Positions 4,462 through 27,495 are shown, counted from the stretch's first letter. The stretch: 60,885 nt of DNA from a virus (IMGVR_UViG_3300048591_000686:1-60885), one strand, 5' to 3'. Numbers and translations: made by a program. Notes: generated by a model from the sequence alone, not told the origin.

Positions 4462-4925
4462 TGCCCTGCCTTGCGCCGCACGTAGTCGGCAATCTCGCCC
4501 ACGTGGGCGTCGTCAACCTGCCCCGTCGCCAGGCGCAGCACGGTATAGCCCAGCATCGCCGCCGCGTTGTACTTTTCGCAGTCGCCCCGAAAGCCCGCGG
4601 CCTGCGTGTGGCGCCCCCCGTTGTAAATTCCCCCCTCCAACTCAATGATGGTCTTGGTGGGCAGGTGGCAGTAGTCGGCGCGCCATTTGCGGGCGGGGTG
4701 GAACCGGTACTCCCGACGCAGGTCGGGGCCGCCCCACGTCTGCCACAGCGCCTCGAAGCGCTGCGCCAGTGCGTTGACGGGCGTAACCGCCGTTACGGGC
4801 GTGGCGCCGCCCCTGGCCAGCATCTGTTCCAGTTGCGCCGCCGTCGCCGCGCCGGGGTCGTCGGCCACCACCAGTTCGGGGTTGCCGGCCAACATCGCTT
4901 TGTACTCGCGCTCGCTGATGCCCAT
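4458..4925 (-). CDS. Vsr/DUF559-like PD-(D/E)XK endonuclease
   Basis: EYRFHPARKWRADY...IIELEGGIY..GRH....F.GD.EKYNAA.MLGY.VLR signature. Confidence 0.85.
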   Translation of the reverse strand: MGISEREYKAMLAGNPELVVADDPGAATAAQLEQMLARGGATPVTAVTPVNALAQRFEALWQTWGGPDLRREYRFHPARKWRADYCHLPTKTIIELEGGIYNGGRHTQAAGFRGDCEKYNAAAMLGYTVLRLATGQVDDAHVGEIADYVRRKAGQ

Positions 4926-4928
4926 GCC

Positions 4929-5561
4929 CTATTCCTCCCCGGGATACAATGCGGCGCGCCAGTTGGGGGGCACGTCCGCCGCCTTGCACGCGGCTTCGTA
5001 GGCGCGGCCGGCGCTGTAGATGGTGCGCAGCGCTGCCCACATCTTGTCCCGCCCCGTCTCCGTGTCGCAGGCGGCGATGATGTCCAGCAGCGGGCAGTCG
5101 CCCGACGTGGGGGCCAGCAGCCGGTAGAGCGCATCGCTGTAGCGCCCGCGTGCCTCGTTGTGGTCGTGGTGGGCCGCGGCTGCCTTGCACCCCACGCACG
5201 TGCAAGCGCCGGGGTAGACGCTCTGCGGGTCCGCCGCGCTGCCGGCCGCCGCTGCCATCGCCGCCCAGTCGGACGCCGCGCGTTCCGCCGTCGCCAGTGC
5301 GTCGTTGGCCTGCGCTTCCAGCCCCCGGATGGCGGCGGTGATCGTGGCGACGGCCGCCGCGTCCTTCGCCCTGCGCGCCGCGGCGAGCCGTTCGTAACCG
5401 CGGGCGATGCGCCCATGCCAGCACAGGTGCAGCGTCGAGCCGTCCGGCTGGGCGATGGGCTGCGGTGCGTAGGCTGCGTTGAGCGCCGCCACCGCCGCGC
5501 CGCGTGCGGCCTCGATCTTGCTGGGTGTCACTGTTTCGCGTTGCTTTGTGAGTACTGCCAT
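4929..5561 (-). CDS. Hypothetical protein
   Basis: ATG 5561 after GAGGG; contains CTCVGC. Confidence 0.65.
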   Translation of the reverse strand: MAVLTKQRETVTPSKIEAARGAAVAALNAAYAPQPIAQPDGSTLHLCWHGRIARGYERLAAARRAKDAAAVATITAAIRGLEAQANDALATAERAASDWAAMAAAAGSAADPQSVYPGACTCVGCKAAAAHHDHNEARGRYSDALYRLLAPTSGDCPLLDIIAACDTETGRDKMWAALRTIYSAGRAYEAACKAADVPPNWRAALYPGEE

Positions 5562-5980
5562 AATTCCCTCGCTTTCGGCAAATCGCCTACCATCATCGCC
5601 TTGAACCGTCCGCCCCACTGCCCCCCGAGCGCCGCCAGTACCTGCCAGTGCGCCGCATCGCCTCCGTAGCCCACATCCACCCATTCGCCGCGGCTGTAGA
5701 AGATGCGCTGCGTCTGCGCCGGCGGCGGGGGCGCAAACGGCGGACTCAGCGCCCGCACCAGGTCGCCGGCGTTGGTGAGGATGACCACCGCCTCCGCCCC
5801 CATCAGCGCCGCCTGCGCCAAAGCCTGTGCAAGGATTGTCCAGGGTTGGCCGGTAAGCGCCAGCGCGTCGGCGATGGCCTCCCCCTGCCAGTCGCGGAGG
5901 GTCGCGGTAAGCGCCGCGTGGCCGTCCGCGGCCCATAGGCCAAGGGTCAGGGTGCCGGCGTCGGTGGGCAGGGGGGTCAC
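5528..5980 (-). CDS. Hypothetical protein, possibly degenerate RNase H-like fold
   Basis: LTATLRDWQGE..LAQALAQAALMGAEAVVILTNAGDLVRAL resembles the RNase HI core without a clear catalytic acid set. Confidence 0.45.
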   Translation of the reverse strand: MTPLPTDAGTLTLGLWAADGHAALTATLRDWQGEAIADALALTGQPWTILAQALAQAALMGAEAVVILTNAGDLVRALSPPFAPPPPAQTQRIFYSRGEWVDVGYGGDAAHWQVLAALGGQWGGRFKAMMVGDLPKARELWQYSQSNAKQ

Positions 5981-6010: not shown

Positions 6011-6290
6011 GCGGTAACTGAAGTAACTGCCTTTTTCCGCGATAGAGAGATTTTTAGAAAGACAAAAACATATACATATATTTGAAGGGTCACACGCGAT
6101 GGTTCTCTATCATGTAAAAAGTCAGTTACTTCAGTTACTATAGTTACTACATATACTTGTTTTGTCGTCCTCCAGTGTACGAAGCGACTTGGCCTGCTTG
6201 CATGGGCGGCAAAATGGCCGTTTTGCGGTAACTGAAGTTCAGTTACCGCGCCGCAAAAGTCAGTTACCGCGAGGTGATTTTCAGTTACTA
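6011..6290. promoter_or_regulatory. Putative replication origin with GTAACT/AGTTAC iterons around an AT-rich core
   Basis: GTAACT at 6014, 6023, 6228; AGTTAC at 6124, 6133, 6142, 6241, 6262, 6283. AT-rich 6040-6165. Lies immediately downstream of the primase-helicase. Confidence 0.75.
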
Positions 6291-9086
6291 TAGGCCAGTT
6301 GCTGCGCATGCCGCCTCGCTTTCGTCCATCGTGTCGATGCCGTCCGCGTTCGCGTCCAGGATGGCCGGCGTCAAATGCAGCACACGCTGCTTTTCGCCGC
6401 CAATGGATACCAGCCGCGTCGTTTGATCCCCGCCTGTCGTGGCAAGCCAACCCAACTGCTGCATCTGCCCGTACAACGTTTGTGGGGAGATTAGCAACTG
6501 GGTAGGCCCTAGCAGGCGCTTGACCGCGGCGAGGGCAATGGCCGGCAGCAAATACACCCCGCTGCCATCCACCCAGCCCAACACGCGGTCGCGCTCGAAA
6601 TTGTCCGGCTTGCCGAGGCTGCGGTCGATCAACTTATACTGCCCGCTGCCGATCAACTCACGCAGTGCATTGCGGTACTGGAGCGCCTCCATCGCCTCCA
6701 CCGTCGATTTCGCCATGGTGCGGGCAATGGCACGCAGCCCTATGGCGTGCTCCTGGCTATACGAAAGCAGCGCAGGTCCGATGGTGGGATGTTCGCAGGC
6801 GAGGCGCCAGGCCAGTTCATTGACAGCGAGATTCGACGCGACGCGGGCAATGTTGGCGCTGTCCTTTTCGATGCGGCTCAGGCGCGCCGCCCACTCAGAG
6901 CGCAGGCGGGGGAATGTGCGTCCGGCAGCCTTGGCGGCGCTGCGCCCATCATCGGATTGCAGCCACGTGATCCAGGCCCAGCCGACGGCGCATAGATGTT
7001 CGCTCAGGTCCTGCGCACTGGTCAGCAGGTCGTTGGGTTCGCCGCGCTGCCAGTCGAACGTCACGAGCAGGATGCGGGCGATGCTGGCCGCGTCGTCGCG
7101 CGGCAGGTCCTCGCCCGTTACGACGGGGATGCAGCGCACCAGCTTTGTCTCGCGCAGCTCCCCGTCGCGGCTGCTGCGCTTGCGGTCGCCGCCTTCGAGT
7201 ATGTTGTGAATCAGGTTGACGAAATCGTGTTTGCCGTTGCCGGTGTTGGGCTTGTAATTGTCAATCAGCAGCGGTAGATCGTGAGCGTGCGCTGCAAATG
7301 CCATGATGGCGTTACGGGTCGCACCCTCGCCCAGTTTGAGCAGGTTGTCATTCGACGCAAACCCCGGCCCGTAGAGGCACATGGCCGCCTGCGTCCACGA
7401 CGTCTTGAGGCTGCCGGTCCGGCCGGCGATGAAGATGGCTACCCGCTCATTGCCCAGCCCTGCCGGACGCAGCATGGGCGGCATCAGCAGCGAGGCGATA
7501 ATGGGCGTCGTCAATCTCGGCTGCATTGCATCGATGAGGTTTGTCAAGGCTAGCAGCCCCGTCTCCAACTCGTGGCCCGGCTTCGGTGCGGCATAGGCGA
7601 TCTGGCGCGGCACGCTGATGAGCGTCGAATCGTCCATGCCGGGCATCAGAAACGACGTATAGCTATCGTCCTCCCAGCCGGTGCGGTAGTAGCGCACGCG
7701 TTGGGGCCGGTCGGCCTCCGTCGTCAGCTTGCCGATAGCGGGACGCAGGTGGGCTGACATGCCGTTGTATACCACGTCAATCCCACCGGTGGCGGCGGTC
7801 AGGCACGCCAGCAGCCGCACGTCCGATCCAAAATCCTGCCCGCTGATTTCGCAGCGAAACGCCCCGCGCCGCAATCCTCGCCCTGCCAGCACCAGGTGGC
7901 TGTTACCATTTTCATCTACGATTTCTTCGGCGATGGTCACGCAGAAATCGGCGATGGGCTTCGACTCCACCCCGTCGCGTGTCTCATACAGCAGCACCAT
8001 TTTCCCGCCCTTGACTGCGTAGGGCCACGTCTGGTGCTTGACGGCCGCCGCCTCCGCACTGTCCGGCAGCGCCTCCAAATCGAGCGGGTCCGGCAGCACC
8101 GCCGCGAACCCATACTCATACGGCGCGAATCCGTTTTCCCCGCTGCCGTTCAGCGCCACCACGCGCGGCTTGGCAATGCCGCTGCGCAGCCCACTGCGAA
8201 TCGTGGCGATGGCCTCGCCTTCGCCCTGCCCGACGTCTAGCGCCGCACTCAGCAGCGCCTGCTCGACCTCGCCTTCAGTGAGCAGCCCCGCACCCACCAG
8301 TTGCCCCAACGAGTGCGCCGCCTTGTTCACGGCGTTATTGTGCGTATGGGGAGCGGACGTGCGAATGAGTTGCAATTCCTCATCCAGGGCTTTCTGCGCG
8401 TACCCCTGCGGCGGCACATGGGGCGCGCTGCCGTTGGTGCCGTTGCGGTGCGTAACCGGCGTTACGGACTTAACCTCGGGCTCTTTTGTTACCGCAGCGT
8501 AGGCCAGCAGCAGCGCGTCACGGTCGACGGGCGCCGGCGCTCCCACCGGCTCGCCGTGCGCCCAGGCGTACACGCCGCCCGATGGGTGCACGGACCCCGG
8601 CAGCGCGGCATAGTGCCCCGTCCATCGCAATTCGATGTGCCCGCCGCCGTCACGCGCGGGGCGATCTTCCTTCCCCTTCTCAATCTCCAACCCCTCGCAG
8701 CGCAGCCACACATGCGCGCCGCCGCCGGGCGTTTTGACCGTCCAGTGATAGTTGACGGGCAATCCTGCAGCGCCGAGAAACTCGCTAACCATGGCCGGCG
8801 CGGTCGCATCGAAATCGATGCACACCACATCGCCGCTGACCGGGCCGCACACGCCGCCCAACCCACCGACGCTCACCCACCATTCATGTTTTTTTATCTG
8901 CGCCCAATGCGCGTCCGTTTGTTTTGTCTGCTGCCAGTCGTCCCAGCGGAACCGCATAATGCTGCCTGATGGGGAGACGCCCGTCTCGACCGGCCGTTTG
9001 TCGGCCCCGAGCGGCACGAGGTTGAAACCCAGTGCCCGATATTTCGCCGCCAGTTGGCGGTATTCTTTCGCCGTTTCAACCGTCAT
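6288..9086 (-). CDS. Bifunctional primase/polymerase (Prim-Pol) fused to DUF927-like P-loop helicase
   Basis: GFNLVPL..DKRP, CIDFD, TVKTPGGGAHVW, LPGSVHPSGGVYAW (Prim-Pol); GRTGSLKTS Walker A-like and LLIDN Walker B; ATG 9086. Confidence 0.9.
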   Translation of the reverse strand: MTVETAKEYRQLAAKYRALGFNLVPLGADKRPVETGVSPSGSIMRFRWDDWQQTKQTDAHWAQIKKHEWWVSVGGLGGVCGPVSGDVVCIDFDATAPAMVSEFLGAAGLPVNYHWTVKTPGGGAHVWLRCEGLEIEKGKEDRPARDGGGHIELRWTGHYAALPGSVHPSGGVYAWAHGEPVGAPAPVDRDALLLAYAAVTKEPEVKSVTPVTHRNGTNGSAPHVPPQGYAQKALDEELQLIRTSAPHTHNNAVNKAAHSLGQLVGAGLLTEGEVEQALLSAALDVGQGEGEAIATIRSGLRSGIAKPRVVALNGSGENGFAPYEYGFAAVLPDPLDLEALPDSAEAAAVKHQTWPYAVKGGKMVLLYETRDGVESKPIADFCVTIAEEIVDENGNSHLVLAGRGLRRGAFRCEISGQDFGSDVRLLACLTAATGGIDVVYNGMSAHLRPAIGKLTTEADRPQRVRYYRTGWEDDSYTSFLMPGMDDSTLISVPRQIAYAAPKPGHELETGLLALTNLIDAMQPRLTTPIIASLLMPPMLRPAGLGNERVAIFIAGRTGSLKTSWTQAAMCLYGPGFASNDNLLKLGEGATRNAIMAFAAHAHDLPLLIDNYKPNTGNGKHDFVNLIHNILEGGDRKRSSRDGELRETKLVRCIPVVTGEDLPRDDAASIARILLVTFDWQRGEPNDLLTSAQDLSEHLCAVGWAWITWLQSDDGRSAAKAAGRTFPRLRSEWAARLSRIEKDSANIARVASNLAVNELAWRLACEHPTIGPALLSYSQEHAIGLRAIARTMAKSTVEAMEALQYRNALRELIGSGQYKLIDRSLGKPDNFERDRVLGWVDGSGVYLLPAIALAAVKRLLGPTQLLISPQTLYGQMQQLGWLATTGGDQTTRLVSIGGEKQRVLHLTPAILDANADGIDTMDESEAACAATGL

Positions 9087-14973: not shown

Positions 14974-17900
14974 ATGCCTGACTACAAAACCCTGATGATC
15001 GACCTCTGGCAGAGCGCCTGCCAGGACAAGCCCAAGCGACCCAGCGCGCAGGTGCTGGATGGTTATTTCGTGCTGACCATCAACGGCAACCGCGGCGCAT
15101 GGGCCGACATTGTGCAGGCGGCGGGGGTGCCGGCGCACGCCACGCAGGTTATCGAGGGCGACACGCTGACCGCCCGCTGGCCCAGCGTCGGCGATGCAAT
15201 CTTTGGGCCGGGCGGCGACATCGCCCAGCGGCTGCCGGGCTACGAGTGCCGCGCGCCGCAATTGCACATGGCGCGCCTGATTCAGCGCAGCATCGAAATG
15301 GGCACGCCGGCAGTGGTCGAGGCGGGCACTGGAACCGGCAAGTGCCTGCACCCCGACACTTTGATTTCTATGTCTGACGGTACGCTGCGGCGCATTGCAG
15401 ATCTGGTAGGGCAGCATCCAAATGTCGTGAGTCTTGGGTCTGGCTTGCTTCTTTCTCATGGTAGCGTGGCCCGCTGCTGGGCAAGTGGTGAGAAGCAAAC
15501 TTACCGCATGGTCACGCGACTTGGTCGCGAAATCAAGGCGAGTCAAGATCATCGCTTTCTGACGGTTACTGGATGGAAGCGATTGGAAGAATTAGTGCCA
15601 GGGGATCGCATTGCGTCACCGCGTCGACTACCAGCGCCGGTACAGTCATGCTCTATGCCCGAACATGAGATTGTGTTTTTGGCACACATGATTACTGACG
15701 GCACATGCAGTGCCGCTGGCTATAGGGGAGCCGTAACCTATACCAAAAGCGATTCTGCATTAGTGGAAGATGTGCGAATAGCTGCAAATGCGATGGGATG
15801 CACCCTCGTTCGTCGCGGCAAGTACGGTTACGGAATTTGTCGCCAAAAGCAGGGCAGAAGCGGGCGCAACGTCGCCATCCTTTTGCTGGAACAGCACGGA
15901 TTAACAGCAAAGGATTCCTACGGAAAATTCGTGCCGGACGCCATCTTCCGATTGCCTGACCGCGAACTGGCATTGTTTTTGGGACGGCTATTCAGTGGTG
16001 ACGGCAGCGTAGATGCAGATCGCAGTGTTGTCGAGTACAGCACTGTGTCGCGGCGCTTGGCAGAGCAAGTGCAGCACCTACTGTTGCGCTTTGGCATAGT
16101 AGCATCGCTTTCGCTAAAAAACGGCCGTTACCTGGGGCAACGGCATGTATCGTGGCGGTTGACGGTTTCCGGCAAGCAAAACGTCGAAGCATTCAACGAG
16201 CATTTGGGGCCGTTCGTTGTTGGCGACAAGGCCAAGCGCTTGATGGCTGCTACGCGCCGACTGATGCGCACCAAGAGCAATCCGAATTACGACGTCATTC
16301 CGCGCGAGATCATGCCCGCAGTTATGGATGCACTGACTGCTACAGGTCTCAATGATGCCGCTTTGCGCCGGGAAGGAATTCGGATTCGGCTTGGGCACAA
16401 AGGTATTTCGCGGCGCAACATGCGAACTATCGGGACTATCACCAACAGTCCGCTCTTGGCTTGCTTGTCGCGTTCGGACATCTACTGGGACGAAATCATC
16501 GCTATAGAGCCTGCGGAGTTTACTCAGACGTATGACATTGAAATGGTAGGCGAACCGAACTTTGTAGCAGATGATTTCATCGTTCACAACAGTTACAGTT
16601 ACGCCGCAGTGTGCATGGCGATGAATAAGAAAGTCATCATCAGCACGTCCAACAAGGCGTTGCAGATGCAGCTCATCGACAAGGACCTGCCATTTCTCCA
16701 ACGCATCTGGCCGGACAAGCGCGTCGCGGTGTCAGTGGGTAAGGGCAACTATGCGTGCCGCCTCAAATGCGACCACATGGGGGAGAGCGGCGCCAACATC
16801 GCCGACCCCGACCTATACGACTGGTACGCCAACACCGCGACGGGCAACACCGAAGAAATCCTGTTTGCGGTCGATTTCAAGGCGTTGAAACCCATCACCG
16901 TTGACGATGATTGCGCCGGCCGCCACTGCCCGCTGTACGCGGATTGTTTTTATTACCGGGCCCGCGCCGCGCTGCAAGGCGCTGACGTGGTAGTCACCAA
17001 CCATGCGCTGCTCTGTCTCGACCAGGTGGCGGAGGGCAACATACTACCGCCTGCCGACGTGGTGGTGGTGGACGAAGCGCACAAGCTGGCCGACTACATG
17101 CGCAGCGCCAGGGGGTGCGAGATCAGCGTGCCGCAGGTGCTGCGGGCCATCGGTCTGGCGGAGGGGTACGCTGACCCGGACAAAGTATCCGACGCGGAGG
17201 ATGCGCTGCTGCTCCTGGAACGGGGCATCGCCGTCCACACCAACAACACCGACGATGCGCAGGTGTCCATCGGCAAGGACGAGCCGCTGCAAGGCGCGGA
17301 CACCCTGGCGCTGCAACTGCTGGCGCTAGCGGAGGATGTGCGGCCAGAGGATGAACTGCCTGCCGACGCTGACGAGAAGAAGCTCGCGCGCAAGGCGCAG
17401 CGTATCTGCACCATGGCCGGCAAACTGGCGATGATGTCCGGTCCCACGCGCGACGGCTACGTGCGCTGGATCGACCAGGGGCGCGGCGGCGAACCCGCCA
17501 AGCTGTGCTCGCAGCCGTTCGACGTAAGCCACTGGATCGCCCAGCTCGCCGGCGTCAATGCGCAGCCTGCGGCAGTGCAGCCCGATTACACCCGCTGCGA
17601 ACGCTGCCGCCGCACCCTGACCGCAGAGAAGGTCGCCATCCTGGACCGCAAACCCTACGGCCCCGATTGCATTCACCATGTGGACGTTTTCGGCGATGCG
17701 GAGACGGTCAATCTTGCAGAGTGGCTGGCCCTGGACCGCAGCGAAACGCCGCTGCTGACCTACAGCGCCAAGGCCACCATCTTCTGCTCCGCCACTCTCG
17801 CCGCGCCCGACATGGCCCATTTCCTGCGCACTGCGGGCCTGCCGCAGGCGCTGCAAATGCAGGCGGCAAGCCCCTTCGACTACGCCGCCAACGCGCTGCT

Positions 17901-18675
17901 CTACCTGCCCAGCGGCGCGGCCCCCGCCCCCAACGCGCAGGGGTGGCTGGCCTGGGCAGTGGATGAGATGCGCCAGTTGGTGCTGGCTGCGAACGGCGGC
18001 GCGTTCCTCCTGTTCACGTCCTACAGCGCCATGAACACCGCGGTGCAGACGCTGGCCCGCACCTTCACCGCCCGCGGCCTCACCGTGCTGGTGCAGGGCG
18101 AGATGCCCAAAGCCGAAATCGCCAAGCGCTTCAAGGCCGACGGGTCCGCGGTGCTCTTTGCGACCAAGAGCTTTTTCGAGGGCGTCTCAATCGACGGCGC
18201 GGCGCTGCGGTTGGTGGTGGTGGACAAGATGCCGTTCGAGGCGCCAACCCCGCTCACTCAGGCAATGGAGGCCGACCTGCTCGACAAGGCGCGGGCGGCG
18301 GGCCTGACCGGTAAGACGCTGGAGATGTACCCGTTCAACGCGCTGCGGGTGCCGCGCATGATTATCGAGTTGAAGCAGGGGCTGGGCCGCCTCATCAGGA
18401 CGCAGACGGACCAGGGCGTCATGGCAGTGCTCGACAGCCGCATCCGCAGCGCACAGTACGGGCGCAGCGCCGTGATCCCCAGTTTGCCGCCCGCGGCCCT
18501 GTGCAGCCGCATCGAACTGGTACAGGCGTTCTACGGCACACTGCCGCCGCTGCCCGCCAAGCTCCTGGCCCCGCCCGCCGAAGTGCGCGAGGAAAAGGCC
18601 GCGACCAAGGCAAAGCGCGCCGCGGCGGTAATGCCCAACTACATTGCCCTCAGCGGCGAAGAAATTCCGTTCTAA
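14974..18675 (+). CDS. DinG/YoaA-family Fe-S SF2 helicase containing a LAGLIDADG intein
   Basis: EAGTGTGK|C..HN|S Walker A, Cys cluster (CRLKC, CAGRHC, CFY), VVDEAH, SATL, LFTSY, FFEGVS, QGLGRLIR. Confidence 0.92.
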   Translation: MPDYKTLMIDLWQSACQDKPKRPSAQVLDGYFVLTINGNRGAWADIVQAAGVPAHATQVIEGDTLTARWPSVGDAIFGPGGDIAQRLPGYECRAPQLHMARLIQRSIEMGTPAVVEAGTGTGKCLHPDTLISMSDGTLRRIADLVGQHPNVVSLGSGLLLSHGSVARCWASGEKQTYRMVTRLGREIKASQDHRFLTVTGWKRLEELVPGDRIASPRRLPAPVQSCSMPEHEIVFLAHMITDGTCSAAGYRGAVTYTKSDSALVEDVRIAANAMGCTLVRRGKYGYGICRQKQGRSGRNVAILLLEQHGLTAKDSYGKFVPDAIFRLPDRELALFLGRLFSGDGSVDADRSVVEYSTVSRRLAEQVQHLLLRFGIVASLSLKNGRYLGQRHVSWRLTVSGKQNVEAFNEHLGPFVVGDKAKRLMAATRRLMRTKSNPNYDVIPREIMPAVMDALTATGLNDAALRREGIRIRLGHKGISRRNMRTIGTITNSPLLACLSRSDIYWDEIIAIEPAEFTQTYDIEMVGEPNFVADDFIVHNSYSYAAVCMAMNKKVIISTSNKALQMQLIDKDLPFLQRIWPDKRVAVSVGKGNYACRLKCDHMGESGANIADPDLYDWYANTATGNTEEILFAVDFKALKPITVDDDCAGRHCPLYADCFYYRARAALQGADVVVTNHALLCLDQVAEGNILPPADVVVVDEAHKLADYMRSARGCEISVPQVLRAIGLAEGYADPDKVSDAEDALLLLERGIAVHTNNTDDAQVSIGKDEPLQGADTLALQLLALAEDVRPEDELPADADEKKLARKAQRICTMAGKLAMMSGPTRDGYVRWIDQGRGGEPAKLCSQPFDVSHWIAQLAGVNAQPAAVQPDYTRCERCRRTLTAEKVAILDRKPYGPDCIHHVDVFGDAETVNLAEWLALDRSETPLLTYSAKATIFCSATLAAPDMAHFLRTAGLPQALQMQAASPFDYAANALLYLPSGAAPAPNAQGWLAWAVDEMRQLVLAANGGAFLLFTSYSAMNTAVQTLARTFTARGLTVLVQGEMPKAEIAKRFKADGSAVLFATKSFFEGVSIDGAALRLVVVDKMPFEAPTPLTQAMEADLLDKARAAGLTGKTLEMYPFNALRVPRMIIELKQGLGRLIRTQTDQGVMAVLDSRIRSAQYGRSAVIPSLPPAALCSRIELVQAFYGTLPPLPAKLLAPPAEVREEKAATKAKRAAAVMPNYIALSGEEIPF
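15343..16590 (+). mobile_element. Intein (416 aa) with in-frame LAGLIDADG endonuclease
   Basis: Starts CLHPDT; block B ASQDHRF; FLAHMITDG and FLGRLFSGDG motifs; ends TYDIEM..NFVADDFIVHN/S; visibly lower GC. Confidence 0.93.
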
Positions 18676-24285: not shown

Positions 24286-24481
24286 CACACCCACCGCACC
24301 GAAGGCGCTGGCCCCTCACGAACTGCGCACGGTGGCGATGCCGGACCTGCGCACGCCGGACCAGCGCCACGCCGACGACATGGCCGCGCTGACGGCGCGC
24401 ATTGATTTACTGGAGGCGGCCATCGTGCGGCAAGCGGATGTGTTGCAGGTGCTGATGTTGCGCCTGGATGATAGGACGTAG
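24278..24481 (+). CDS. Hypothetical protein
   Basis: AGGAGG SD; coiled-coil C-terminus. Confidence 0.55.
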   Translation: MHDTPTAPKALAPHELRTVAMPDLRTPDQRHADDMAALTARIDLLEAAIVRQADVLQVLMLRLDDRT

Positions 24482-24485
24482 GGCG

Positions 24486-24857
24486 ATGGCGCGGCGGGAA
24501 TACAGCGACGAACTAAAGGCGCAGGTCATGGCGGCATTGCTGGCTGGCCAGAGCGTTTCGTCCACCGCGCAGGCGTACAAGATCCCAAAAGGCACAGTGA
24601 GCAGTTGGCGCAAGGCAGCCTTGGGCAAGGTCGCGGAGGGTGCGGTCGAATCCGACGCGACCCAAAAAAGCACAACGCTAGACGATCTGCTGCAAGGCTA
24701 CGTTGAAACAAACCTGGTAACGTTACGTGAACAGTCTCAGTTCTTCCGAGATAAAGAGTGGCTCAAACGGCAGCAGGCGTCCGAGCTTGCAGTCCTTCAC
24801 GGGGTGCTTGCCGACAAAACAGTTCGGATTCTCGAAGCATACGGCAATGCAGGATAG
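24486..24857 (+). CDS. terS: Terminase small subunit (HTH)
   Basis: YSDELKAQ..GQSVSSTAQAYKIPKGTVSSW HTH; overlaps the terL start. Confidence 0.75.
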   Translation: MARREYSDELKAQVMAALLAGQSVSSTAQAYKIPKGTVSSWRKAALGKVAEGAVESDATQKSTTLDDLLQGYVETNLVTLREQSQFFRDKEWLKRQQASELAVLHGVLADKTVRILEAYGNAG

Positions 24858-27495
24858 TAGGGGCAAAGCTGAGGATGACGCCTGTTCCAGCCTCCTGGCC
24901 TTCACCCTCTACACCTACCCCACCTACCAGGTCAATTGGCACCACCGTGTTATCTGTGAACATTTAGACGATTTTGTAGCTGGCAAAATTAAGCGGCTGA
25001 TGGTTTTTGCGCCTCCCCGCAGTGGCAAGTCGGAACTCGTGTCGAGGCGGCTGCCGGCGTTCATCCTAGGGCAAAGACCCGACACAACAATTATCGCTAC
25101 CAGTTACGGTGCGGACCTGGCCAGGCGCATGAATCGCGACGTTCAGCGCATTATGGATGAAGATGCTTACCGCAAACTGTTCCCCGATACGAAGCTGTGG
25201 GGTAAGAACGTGCGTTCCGACGCGCAGGGCTCATGGCTGCGCAATTCTGATATGTTTGAGGTGGTAGGCCATCGGGGCTACTACCTGGGGACGGGCGTTG
25301 GGGGGAGCATAACGGGCAGTGGTGCGCATTGTTTAACGGGAGAAACTAGCGTAAGAACTGAAATGGGTAACATTGCTATAAGTAACCTATTCATGTTACA
25401 ATACCATCCAAGGGTGTGGGCATTCGACCACGAATCAAATGCTCCCGTCTTGCGAAGGATTGTGGCGGTCAAGGAGAGCTATAGCGATGACATCCTCGAA
25501 ATCGTTACCGTCAGTGGAAGAAGTATTAAAGCAACTGCCGAGCACCGTTTCTACGTACATGGACGCGGATACCAAGAGGCGGCGCTTCTCTGTCCAGGGG
25601 ACCAAATCCAAGCTGTCGAGATCGAACAAGACGTGTGGGATTTGCGGAAAGACCAAGGGAACGGAAAGCCGCGGCACGATGTGCAAAGATTGCTACATGC
25701 GAATCAGGGCCATCAAGGTATCATTGGCCTGCGCATGGTGCGGCAAGGAGTTCGAGCGCCCTTTGTACGTACACGAAAAGTCCTTAAAGCACGGAAGGCA
25801 AGAGGCTTTCTGCTCCAAGGCTTGTCTGTGCGCCAACAACAATTACAAGAAGGCCGTTGCGGCAAATCGCACCTGCCTTCATTGCGGTACTCTCTTGGTT
25901 GCTACGCGCGGCCGATACTGTTCAGCAGCCTGCAAGGCGGCCTCAGCAAAGAAGAGGAAAGAGTTAGAGGATCGTACTTGCCCTTGGTGCGGAGCAACGT
26001 TTTCGCCGGCAACAAGTCGCAGGCAGTATTGTTCCAGGGCGTGCGCGAATGCCGCTCATTCAGTACGGATGCGCGGCAGGGGAAACTCGCACTTCAAAAC
26101 GGGGACCAGCTACGCGAAATGGTTTGCGGAAATGCGCCCGTTGATTATGGAGCGCGACGAGCATCGTTGCGTGGTGTGCCAGACGTCGGAACGGATGAAC
26201 GTCGTTACGTGGAAGGACCAAGAAGTAGATCGCTCGAACCTAATTATTCATCACATCAACGAAGACCCCACCGACAATACCCCCCAGAATCTGGTCACGC
26301 TGTGCAAGACTTGCCATGCCGTGCACCACAAGTCGGCACAGACACCGTGGCCGTGGTTAGGCGTCTATGCACAGGTAAAATCCCAGTCTATGACATCCAA
26401 GTGGAAGGGACTCACAACTTCTTTGCGGAAGGTGTACTCACCCACAACTGCGTAATCATCGACGATCCTGTTAAGAACCGCAAAGAGGCCAATTCACCCA
26501 CCTACCGGCAATCCGTCTTTGAGTGGTATACCTCTACCCTATACACCCGCCTGACTCCTGACGGGCAAATCCTGCTGACCGTGACCAGATGGTCAGAAGA
26601 TGACCTGGCAGGCCGCCTACTGGCGCTCTCTAAATCCGACCCCGAAGCTGACCAGTGGACCACGCTGATATTGCCGGCGGTTTCCGAAGAACCTATCGCC
26701 CCCTACGATGAACGCAAAGAGGCCGGCAAGCCGTTGTGGGCAGACCGTTGGGGTATCGACAAGCTGCGCACCATCGAACGCACCGTCGGCTCCCGCGACT
26801 GGGCCAGCCTCTACCAACAGCGCCCCGCACCGGACGAGGGCGAGATCTTCAAACGCCACCACTGGCGCTACTGGCAGCCGCGTGGGGCCAACCTGCCGCC
26901 GGTCACGGTGACGATGGGGGACGGGTCCGTCATCGAAGTGGAGCCGGTGGAGCTGCCGGCCCGTTTTGACGAGCTGCTGCAATCCTGGGACATGGCGTTC
27001 AAGGACACGGCCGGCTCCGACTTTGTGGCCGGCATGGTGCTGGGGCGTTTGGGTGCGGATAAATTCATACTCGACTACGCCAACGACCGCATGGACATCG
27101 TGGCATCTATGGACGCCGTGACGCACTGGGCGATCAAGTGGCCCAAAGCCATCGCCAAGCTGATCGAGGACAAAGCCAACGGGCCGGCGGTCATCCAGAT
27201 GTTGCGAAAGAAGATGGCGGGATTGATCCCGCGCGAACCCCAGGGCGGCAAAGTCAGCCGCGCCTACGCTGCACAGCCCGAGGTGCAAAGCGGTAACGTG
27301 TACCTACCCCACCCCCACATCGCCCCCTGGACGGCGCAATTCATCGCCAACGCCGCCGCCTTTCCCAACGCGGCCCACGACGACGACGTAGACGCATTTA
27401 CGCAGGCGATCATCTACTGGCAGGAGGCCGGGTCAGTCGCCACGGCCCCGGCGCAGGTCACGAGTCAGGCGACGATACAGGAGATGTTTGGATGA
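24847..27495 (+). CDS. terL: Terminase large subunit containing an intein
   Basis: PPRSGKS Walker A, TSYG, IIDDP Walker B, TRW..DDL.G, YQQRP, SWDMA, IEDKANG, FP...HDDDVDAFTQ. Confidence 0.95.
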   Translation: MQDSRGKAEDDACSSLLAFTLYTYPTYQVNWHHRVICEHLDDFVAGKIKRLMVFAPPRSGKSELVSRRLPAFILGQRPDTTIIATSYGADLARRMNRDVQRIMDEDAYRKLFPDTKLWGKNVRSDAQGSWLRNSDMFEVVGHRGYYLGTGVGGSITGSGAHCLTGETSVRTEMGNIAISNLFMLQYHPRVWAFDHESNAPVLRRIVAVKESYSDDILEIVTVSGRSIKATAEHRFYVHGRGYQEAALLCPGDQIQAVEIEQDVWDLRKDQGNGKPRHDVQRLLHANQGHQGIIGLRMVRQGVRAPFVRTRKVLKARKARGFLLQGLSVRQQQLQEGRCGKSHLPSLRYSLGCYARPILFSSLQGGLSKEEERVRGSYLPLVRSNVFAGNKSQAVLFQGVRECRSFSTDARQGKLALQNGDQLREMVCGNAPVDYGARRASLRGVPDVGTDERRYVEGPRSRSLEPNYSSHQRRPHRQYPPESGHAVQDLPCRAPQVGTDTVAVVRRLCTGKIPVYDIQVEGTHNFFAEGVLTHNCVIIDDPVKNRKEANSPTYRQSVFEWYTSTLYTRLTPDGQILLTVTRWSEDDLAGRLLALSKSDPEADQWTTLILPAVSEEPIAPYDERKEAGKPLWADRWGIDKLRTIERTVGSRDWASLYQQRPAPDEGEIFKRHHWRYWQPRGANLPPVTVTMGDGSVIEVEPVELPARFDELLQSWDMAFKDTAGSDFVAGMVLGRLGADKFILDYANDRMDIVASMDAVTHWAIKWPKAIAKLIEDKANGPAVIQMLRKKMAGLIPREPQGGKVSRAYAAQPEVQSGNVYLPHPHIAPWTAQFIANAAAFPNAAHDDDVDAFTQAIIYWQEAGSVATAPAQVTSQATIQEMFG
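25330..26448 (+). mobile_element. Intein (373 aa) in TerL
   Basis: GAH|CLTGET; block B ATAEHRF; VYDIQVEGTHNFFAEGVLTHN|C, immediately before Walker B. Confidence 0.93.
25487..26455 (+). CDS. HNH homing endonuclease with Zn-finger repeats, overprinted in the +1 frame within the TerL intein
   Basis: AAGGAG SD at 25471; CxxCG..(F/Y)CS..C repeats; ERD..RCVVC..IIHHI..D..DN...NLVTLCKTCHAVHH. Confidence 0.88.
   Translation: MTSSKSLPSVEEVLKQLPSTVSTYMDADTKRRRFSVQGTKSKLSRSNKTCGICGKTKGTESRGTMCKDCYMRIRAIKVSLACAWCGKEFERPLYVHEKSLKHGRQEAFCSKACLCANNNYKKAVAANRTCLHCGTLLVATRGRYCSAACKAASAKKRKELEDRTCPWCGATFSPATSRRQYCSRACANAAHSVRMRGRGNSHFKTGTSYAKWFAEMRPLIMERDEHRCVVCQTSERMNVVTWKDQEVDRSNLIIHHINEDPTDNTPQNLVTLCKTCHAVHHKSAQTPWPWLGVYAQVKSQSMTSKWKGLTTSLRKVYSPTTA

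Follow-up and report, generated by a model that had tools for sequence, protein, structure and literature searches.

Can one strand of phage DNA encode, one base apart, both an intein and the nuclease that would spread it? The question is raised by terL, the gene for the large terminase, in a linear viral record from IMG/VR, IMGVR_UViG_3300048591_000686:1-60885 (CheckV completeness 61%). This whole stretch of 60,885 nucleotides (nt) is referred to below as the window. Its terL gene carries an intein in its own reading frame (frame 0), and the +1 frame of the same DNA contains an open reading frame (ORF) with zinc-finger and HNH nuclease motifs. The arrangement is probably a mobile or recently mobile class 1 terL intein with an HNH homing nuclease that is translated independently from the +1 frame. 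Lengths of proteins are in amino acids (aa), and confidence in structural models is given as pLDDT (score of a predicted local distance difference test).

24727-27495, + strand: terL open frame, 922 codons, a single ORF with 0 stops
24847-27495, + strand: terL (large terminase) with its intein, precursor of 882 aa, 509 aa once spliced
25330-26448, + strand: class 1 intein of 373 aa, from Cys1 (25330-25332) to His-Asn (Asn 26446-26448), followed by Cys+1 (26449-26451)
25330-25626, + strand: N-terminal splicing domain, intein residues 1-99, pLDDT 94-98, codon position 3 least conserved
25627-26319, + strand: frame-0 linker, intein residues 100-330, free of stops and unconserved as protein; read in the +1 frame, this segment forms the main part of the HNH ORF
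26341-26448, + strand: C-terminal splicing domain, blocks F and G, frame-0 pLDDT 83-97, overprinted by the predicted C-terminal helices of the +1 HNH protein
25471-25476, + strand: AAGGAG, a Shine-Dalgarno (SD)-like motif 10 nt 5' of ATG 25487, within frame-0 Lys-Glu codons
25487-26455, + strand: HNH ORF, 322 aa from ATG 25487, within an open frame at 25439-26455
25634-26044, + strand: Cys-rich zinc-finger/ribbon array (C66 to C202), the presumed DNA-recognition part
26096-26404, + strand: HNH nuclease domain, residues ~220-322, with the core H271-H272 ... N284 ... H293 ... H297 at 26249-26329
26453-26455, + strand: TAA stop of the HNH ORF, made of extein codons +2 and +3 (GTA ATC)

Two reading frames in one intein

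The terL frame matches Pfam Terminase_6N (E 1.7e-7) and Terminase_6C (E 6.9e-12), and the intein is inserted between GSGAH and CVIIDDP, immediately 5' of the Walker B aspartates. It reads ATAEH in block B and LTHN at its end, followed by C at the junction. In an alignment of 26 family inteins C1, T69 and H72 (block B TxxH), H372 and N373 are invariant, and Pfam Intein_splicing matches the terL frame at 40.9 bits against a cut-off of 35.8 (43.3 bits in a second scan). An AlphaFold2 model made with the 26 family sequences is ordered over residues 1-99 (pLDDT 94-98) and 331-373 (pLDDT 83-97), and Foldseek aligned this ordered part with the Ssp DnaB mini-intein (E 6.8e-7, probability 1.00, root-mean-square deviation (rmsd) 1.5 Å, 99 columns). 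Residues 100-330 were modelled as coil with no secondary structure (pLDDT 34-53), and the frame-0 intein had no PHROG match, in agreement with the initial annotation, which had described the region between blocks B and F as open and without recognisable motifs. The frame-0 product is thus predicted to be a Hint fold with a disordered linker of ~230 aa, and its nucleophiles, block B, terminal His-Asn, profile match and modelled fold assign it to the class 1 inteins. As the catalytic residues are intact and the role of TerL is essential, the precursor would be expected to undergo protein splicing.

The HNH ORF in the +1 frame stops 7 nt beyond the splice junction, and its open frame extends back to 25439 or further. 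Every coordinate first reported for the element (the intein, ATG 25487, AAGGAG, the 322 aa and the stop at +7 nt) proved exact on recheck. In an alignment of 24 sequences including the window, the invariant residues include twelve cysteines of the Cys-rich array (C98, C101, C125, C129, C146, C149, C161, C165, C181, C184, C198 and C202) and, in the nuclease domain, H271, H272, N284, H293 and H297 together with C244, C247 and C289. All 28 residues that are invariant in this alignment are retained in the window copy. The His, Asn and Cys residues of the HNH domain are presumably catalytic or metal-binding, as in HNH motifs generally.

The +1 ORF matches phrog_1271, 'HNH endonuclease' (E 1.1e-29), and 17 further families among the 23 PHROG families matched carry that name; HNH_3, HNH and HNH_2 were present in the Pfam scan at E<=0.1 (HNH and HNH_3 weakly, below their cut-offs) and Endonuclease_7 was absent from it. 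A six-frame Pfam scan placed an HNH match of 20.8 bits at 26225-26332; scored 'with its neighbours' it reaches 21.7 and was flagged as above the cut-off. An AlphaFold2 model from the 24 sequences has a mean pLDDT of 82.9, with confident prediction over residues ~60-335, including C-terminal helices at 307-316 and 320-333 (pLDDT ~90-95); the leader over the N-intein (~residues 1-50) was predicted with low confidence. Model residues 220-322 were aligned by VIA-align with ScoMcrA (Z 8.2, rmsd 3.4, 93 aligned), Cap5 (Z 8.1), EcoKMcrA (Z 8.0) and IscB (Z 7.9), and the top rows are mostly proteins with HNH nuclease domains, a Z of ~8 being only moderate by the tool's own caveat. The HNH domain was resolved by VIA-align only: Foldseek with the whole model gave no match at E<=0.001, and the HNH profile found zinc-finger noise only among the sequences of solved structures (best E 0.01). 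The +1 frame is therefore predicted to encode a confidently folded zinc-finger HNH protein, much as was first proposed. Hidden Markov model matches divide cleanly by frame, as had been anticipated, with Intein_splicing, Terminase_6N and Terminase_6C in frame 0 only and HNH_3, HNH and phrog_1271 in +1 only.

One phase, and selection on both frames, across the family

Clustered at 50% identity, relatives of the HNH protein number 3016 at E<=1e-3 and 83 at E<=1e-30, and most of the top relatives are ~300-320 aa long and share a '...TTA' C-terminus. A tblastn search of GenBank phages found the HNH inside terL in 45 records, from 41 Brucella phages, Gordonia phage Clown (2 records; HNH 42% identical, TerL intein of 385 aa), Synechococcus phage S-EIVl and Ralstonia phage RS-CA1. 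Hosts of the isolate phages belong to the Actinobacteria, Cyanobacteria, and Alpha- and Betaproteobacteria. A further 59 loci of the HNH family came from IMG/VR, and the earlier description of the arrangement as rare does not survive these numbers.

The N-extein, N-intein, HNH and C-intein/C-extein were placed in each IMG/VR locus by tblastn. Frame counts cover the 59 rows in which HNH and TerL were both matched (the window and 58 loci), or 53 after removal of 6 duplicates; L059-L063, which have an HNH match only (25-28% identity, no TerL or intein match), were left out. Intein boundaries were set in 46 of the 53 rows, with L003, L004, L025 and L055-L058 missing from the boundary, codon-position and frozen-codon counts. 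The HNH is +1 relative to terL in 59/59 rows, and across it the terL frame has 0 stops and the third frame 3-20. The insertion site is the same in 46 rows (G.G.. / C ... VHN / C[LMIV]I[IV]DDP), and the last base of the HNH stop lies 7 nt beyond the intein in 29 of the 46 loci and 10 nt beyond it in 6. HNH identity to the window falls to ~30% among the 53 non-redundant members.

Gene callers forbid long same-strand overlaps, so that either terL or the HNH is reported and seldom both. The initial annotation held that pipelines miss such a nested nuclease, which is true of the GenBank records of Clown, S-EIVl and RS-CA1, where terL alone is annotated and the +1 ORF is left out, but not of the brucellaphage records, which do annotate the HNH. 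In metagenome protein sets the reverse is often seen, the HNH ORF being called as a stand-alone protein of ~310 aa.

The openness of the terL frame is not a product of chance. Over the window intein, stops number 0 in frame 0, 3 in the +1 frame (all 5' of the HNH ORF) and 16 in the +2 frame. A stop arises in the terL frame if an HNH-frame codon ends in T and the next begins with AA, AG or GA. There are 63 such stop-prone sites in the 246 codons of the HNH-only region, and a T-ending codon occupies 0/63, with a T-ending synonym available at 46 of them; elsewhere T-ending codons stand at 41/182. Three schemes of synonymous resampling or permutation expect 8.4-11.1 stops, and open runs were 0/20000 in each, while the geometrically equivalent frame of other window genes has 4.8-15.3 stops for every 246 codons. 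Because of the 0/63 count and the failure of any shuffle to remain open, chance does not explain the open TerL frame, and chance openness in GC-rich DNA is ruled out by the synonymous shuffles and the control genes. The same holds across the 53 non-redundant rows, where T-ending codons occur at 0/2858 stop-prone sites versus 1714/8632 (19.9%) elsewhere, the median expectation being 6.7 terL-frame stops per locus.

Selection at the protein level also changes frame within the intein. When the codons of the 46 inteins are aligned in frame 0, conservation is lowest at position 3 across the splicing domains (columns 0-99 and 340-360) and at position 1, the wobble position of the +1 frame, across columns 100-339. 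As the least conserved position passes from 3 to 1 and back to 3, selection switches frame where the folds switch. A comparison of homologues, of the kind proposed at the outset, thus finds constraint on frame 0 over the splicing domains and on the +1 frame over the ~240 codons at the centre. Where the HNH leader overlaps the N-intein, frame-0 position-3 identity is 0.34-0.35 versus 0.29-0.30 further upstream, suggesting that the leader adds little constraint.

The pattern at the 3' end is a different one. Over the last 36 intein codons the frame-0 synonymous choices are nearly fixed family-wide (positions counted from the intein end):

Val-31: GTT in 39/39, codon share in exteins 0.16
Val-21: GTC in 42/45, codon share in exteins 0.38
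Tyr-20: TAT in 35/38, codon share in exteins 0.35
Gln-17: CAA in 31/39, codon share in exteins 0.25
Phe-9: TTT in 40/43, codon share in exteins 0.33
Leu-4: CTC in 36/44, codon share in exteins 0.28

The last ~36 codons therefore appear to be dual-coding, with both Hint blocks F and G and the nuclease C-terminus under constraint. Alternatively, an unrecognised constraint at the DNA or RNA level may have frozen these sites. The first proposal, that the intein frame is kept open only so that TerL can splice, suits the structure-less linker but is too simple for this segment, where both frames appear constrained.

The chance is about even that the +1 overprint is an old, stable architecture and not a short-lived accident of nuclease-gene invasion. 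It is supported by the single phase in 53 members down to ~30% HNH identity and in diverse hosts, by the absence of a fully in-frame version among the 150 relatives listed (no TerL-HNH fusion of ~900 aa, the longest match there being 641 aa), and by the dual-coding of the last ~36 codons together with the stop taken from extein codons. If it is true, the dual-coded end and the extein-made stop would physically tie the nuclease gene to the intein and to its homing site. It would also suggest selection for a nuclease dosage that is independent of that of TerL.

Initiation, mobility and competing explanations

In the proposed mechanism, the Hint splicing domain of ~140 aa would be read in two parts in the terL frame, and the ~230 codons between them would supply a stop-free disordered linker, allowing a full-length precursor that is then spliced to active TerL. 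Read one base later, the same DNA would give the 322-aa zinc-finger array and HNH nuclease, translated alone from the internal SD/ATG (25471/25487), which lies where the N-terminal splicing domain is encoded, and terminated by a stop that extein codons +2 and +3 supply. The nuclease would most likely cut the intein-less terL of co-infecting relatives, and repair would copy the intein and the nuclease gene with it (homing). One stretch of DNA would then serve two proteins under different rules, frame 0 avoiding stops and staying floppy and the +1 frame encoding a folded nuclease. The arrangement may also hold parts of practical use, namely a mini-intein tolerating a disordered insert of ~230 aa for protein engineering, and a compact multi-zinc-finger HNH with a predicted terL target for phage genome editing.

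For the start of the nuclease, the N-inteins of 52 loci were aligned and the +1-frame codons mapped on the columns. The column of the window ATG holds a start codon in 21/52 loci, ATG in 17 of them; other columns mostly hold 0-5 start codons and several hold 7-20 (column 93 has 20). Stops in the +1 frame are frequent 5' of the window ATG column and rare 3' of it. An SD-like motif stands 5-17 nt upstream in 16 of the 21 loci that start at this column, the background being 0.15 of random 13-nt windows. Some start codon occurs within columns 88-94 in 41/52 loci, and among members rich in GC it tends to be TTG, close to GAGG or GGAG. The conserved start column and the SD-like motifs support internal, independent initiation in the subfamily to which the window belongs. 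Masking or exposure of the internal start by RNA structure was rejected, as the segment 25445-25530 folds no better than its shuffles.

The distribution of the intein is sporadic. Of 202 TerL relatives confirmed in IMG/VR the best 80 were kept, with C-extein identity from 83% down to 41%, and the intein is missing from all 80, the N- and C-extein matches abutting in each. The nearest of these 80, L065 and L066 (exteins 81-83% identical), have the empty site GSGAH / VAIIDDP where the window has CVIIDDP, and this site is a candidate homing site. Since it reads VAIIDDP, the Cys+1 codon and the codons of the HNH stop would travel with the element. Such a distribution suggests homing or mobility. 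Among intein-bearing loci the closest by N-extein are L029 (64%) and L053 (61%), and the closest by HNH are L042, L006 and L013 (~49-50%), a mismatch that hints at transfer. In another intein-less TerL relative, L097, the zinc-finger portion of the HNH protein (query residues 42-157 of the core) is matched with 30% identity at 6016-6378, ~1.6 kb 3' of terL, and the matched sequence may be a free-standing relative of the nuclease.

Interruption of the +1 ORF in homologues, named at the outset as grounds for doubt, is seen only in part. Stops fall inside the HNH-homologous region in L002 (Brucella phage Pr), L023 and L047 with terL still open, and terL-frame stops number 0 in the 53 rows. Shortened or interrupted HNH ORFs of 166-252 aa beside an open terL frame occur in L002, L023, L047, L052 and L040. 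These cases are consistent with decay of the nuclease while the intein persists.

Several observations weigh against an independently translated homing nuclease. Of the 52 loci, 31 lack a start codon in the conserved column itself and 11 also lack one up to 3-4 codons away from it; initiation may therefore not be uniform across the family. No RNA structure above that of shuffles was found around the start at 25445-25530 (z 0.12; 104/200 fold as well). Scanned with the whole HNH ORF, Pfam scores lie below the cut-offs (HNH 19.1 vs 21.4, HNH_3 20.7 vs 24.8). A fused N-extein/N-intein/HNH product exists or is predicted in some relatives (P0039 and P0143), and absence of the intein from TerL relatives would also fit loss in place of gain. 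The sequences and models show the two ORFs, the stop avoidance, the frame-specific selection, the folds and the sporadic distribution; splicing, independent initiation, nuclease activity and the target are inferred.

In the two relatives just named, P0039 (444 aa) and P0143 (605 aa), a single frame runs through the N-extein, blocks A-B of the intein and the HNH to the '...TTA' tail. Half-shifted intermediates, split genes and assembly indels are each possible origins. When viral contigs were searched for their DNA, P0039 had no relative there and P0143 only two loci, both weak and unrelated. P0143 begins with the end of a LAGLIDADG-type intein, implying a terL with two inteins. Same-frame gaps of ~0.7-1.0 kb between extein matches in L017 (3837-4187 / 4884-5594), L025 (941-1183 / 1928-2746) and L019 (1413-1577 / 2583-2843) likewise suggest additional inteins elsewhere in terL of some members.

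Among the alternatives, it is unlikely that the element is a fixed relic in which the intein splices, the HNH gene of the window has lost expression or activity, and the +1 openness is residual. Such stages are predicted by the homing cycle, and truncated HNH ORFs are found in L047 (166 aa) and L052 (189 aa). The window copy, however, retains the full set of 28 family-invariant Cys, His and Asn residues, its 322-aa ORF is unbroken and has an SD-like motif and an ATG, its fold is predicted with confidence, and it belongs to a family under purifying selection in the +1 frame.

Less likely still is domestication of the HNH as a terminase-associated nuclease that aids cos cleavage and packaging. 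The +1 ORF in terL is the only Pfam HNH match of the 60.9-kb record, and a functional link with the terminase was raised in the brucellaphage paper (PMC4422536), as far as its available text goes. Against this, the 80/80 best TerL relatives do without an HNH at this site, another HNH may lie outside a record that is ~61% complete, the ORF occurs solely within an intein whose position is a classic homing site, and the HNH stops in L002, L023 and L047 with terL open are those expected of a dispensable selfish gene.

A third possibility, and a more doubtful one, is that the HNH is reached by a +1 ribosomal shift from terL or in an indel-fused form, so that N-extein, N-intein and HNH would make up one fused product whose Hint half aids DNA binding. 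P0039 and P0143 have this layout, and the 11 loci without a start codon near the conserved column would be accommodated. However, ATG stands at one column in 17/52 loci, with SD-like motifs in 16 of the 21 starting there; neither a stop nor a known hungry-codon context that could drive the shift is present in frame 0, slippery sites not having been searched systematically; and P0039 and P0143 may themselves be assembly indels or decayed copies.

That two compensating indels moved an in-frame HNH out of frame, a concern raised initially and favoured by nothing beyond the metagenomic origin of the assembly, is effectively refuted because 53 non-redundant loci, including the isolates Clown, S-EIVl, RS-CA1 and the brucellaphages, share the +1 phase and 0 terL-frame stops; nor would indels produce the 0/63 stop avoidance, and the 150 listed relatives include no in-frame TerL-HNH of ~900 aa. 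An independently translated homing nuclease is thus retained as the probable explanation; the initial observation is confirmed, and the mechanism proposed with it is largely supported by comparison across the family.

Directly 5' of terL on the + strand, an ORF of 129 aa at 24468-24857 overlaps the proposed terL start by 11 nt; judged by where it lies, it probably encodes the small terminase or a DNA-binding partner. The terL start itself, ATG 24847, was picked by reading the sequence and overlaps the stop of this ORF. GC content is 0.50-0.57 over 24500-26600 versus 0.61-0.68 downstream; the low value is unusable as a sign of foreign origin, as the N-extein is also low.

Comparison with known systems

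Novelty, which the initial annotation had left to be checked, does not extend to the out-of-frame nuclease. Brucellaphage GenBank records, a 2015 paper and a 2025 preprint precede it, an out-of-frame intein HNH is already in print, and the window element is another instance of a widespread family. The 2015 paper describes an out-of-frame HNH in the terL intein of brucellaphages (PMC4422536), and in GenBank NC_019447 (Brucella phage Pr) terL is marked 'intein present' and overlapped by an HNH coding sequence that is +1 by its coordinates. The HNH of brucellaphages (Tb, Pr, Fz, Wb, R/C and others; Perisivirus) is homologous to that of the window (tblastn, 36.6% over query residues 179-299, E 9e-15 to 1e-14, 41 records), and the two share the +1 phase relative to terL and the insertion site (GNRAD / C...VHN / CVIIDDP). 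Homology, phase and Walker-B site together place the window element in the brucellaphage-type TerL intein/HNH family. The brucellaphage intein is shorter (332 aa), its HNH is annotated as 228 aa with fewer zinc-finger modules, and the HNH stop lies 8 nt before the intein end as against 7 nt after it in the window. In its available text the 2015 description is one paragraph and contains no test of stop avoidance, frame selection or family breadth (PMC4422536).

Gosselin, Arsenault & Gogarten describe 'non-canonical' actinophage inteins with the nuclease in another frame or strand (bioRxiv 10.1101/2025.01.02.630785). In the part of the preprint that was available, these are proposed to originate from free-standing nuclease genes invading inteins, and the 385-aa TerL intein of Clown is named as the largest class 1 intein. 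They share with the window a splicing domain in the extein frame, a nuclease ORF off that frame but within the usual endonuclease region, on the same strand in some of them, and terL as a main host gene. Their same-strand case is endonuclease VII-like and in 'frame 3', whereas the window has a multi-zinc-finger HNH in frame 2 (+1), and the window element is analogous to that group and not a member of it. The actinophage forms are regarded there as rare and probably transitional, whereas here the +1 phase is universal in a diverse family, which bears on how inteins gain endonucleases and on the model of 'splicing first, nuclease invades later'.

The Walker-B insertion site in TerL was noted by Kelley et al. 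2016 (PMC5050341); the words 'out of frame' are absent from its main text, and no out-of-frame nuclease is mentioned in the passages available. No further paper on this HNH family or its stop avoidance was found in the open-access literature. Not found there either, and seemingly new, are a +1 phase constant across the family, figures for the stop avoidance, conservation of the start column, an HNH stop codon drawn from the extein, and the frozen 3' synonymous sites with a dual-coded C-terminus.

Two other systems resemble the window in part, as far as their available texts show. The ShiLan domain of a mycobacteriophage DNA methylase (PMC11855218) also has an HNH overprinted in a stop-free host frame and poses the same question of translation. 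It has no splicing domain and the insert stays in the host protein, whereas the Hint domain of the window would remove the linker; it has no detectable ribosome-binding site and leaderless or GTG initiation is proposed, whereas the window has an SD-like motif and ATG (PMC11855218). In the fractured genes of Dassa et al. 2009 (PMC2677866) the endonuclease is likewise a separate translation unit between intein halves, but there the host gene is in two ORFs and splicing is in trans, whereas the window has one ORF of 922 codons and splicing would be in cis.

With canonical inteins the element shares the Hint fold, insertion in a conserved active-site motif and the logic of homing. A canonical intein nuclease is a domain of the intein polypeptide and is therefore made 1:1 with the host protein. 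The same phage has a second intein, at 15364-16590 on the + strand within a helicase-like ORF of 1233 aa (14974-18675), with junctions ...GTGK / CLHPDTLI ... FIVHN / SYSY. Pfam Intein_splicing matches both of its ends (E 1.9e-11 and 6.6e-8), and LAGLIDADG-like motifs were seen in frame by eye, so that this intein looks like a canonical in-frame architecture beside the non-canonical one in terL.

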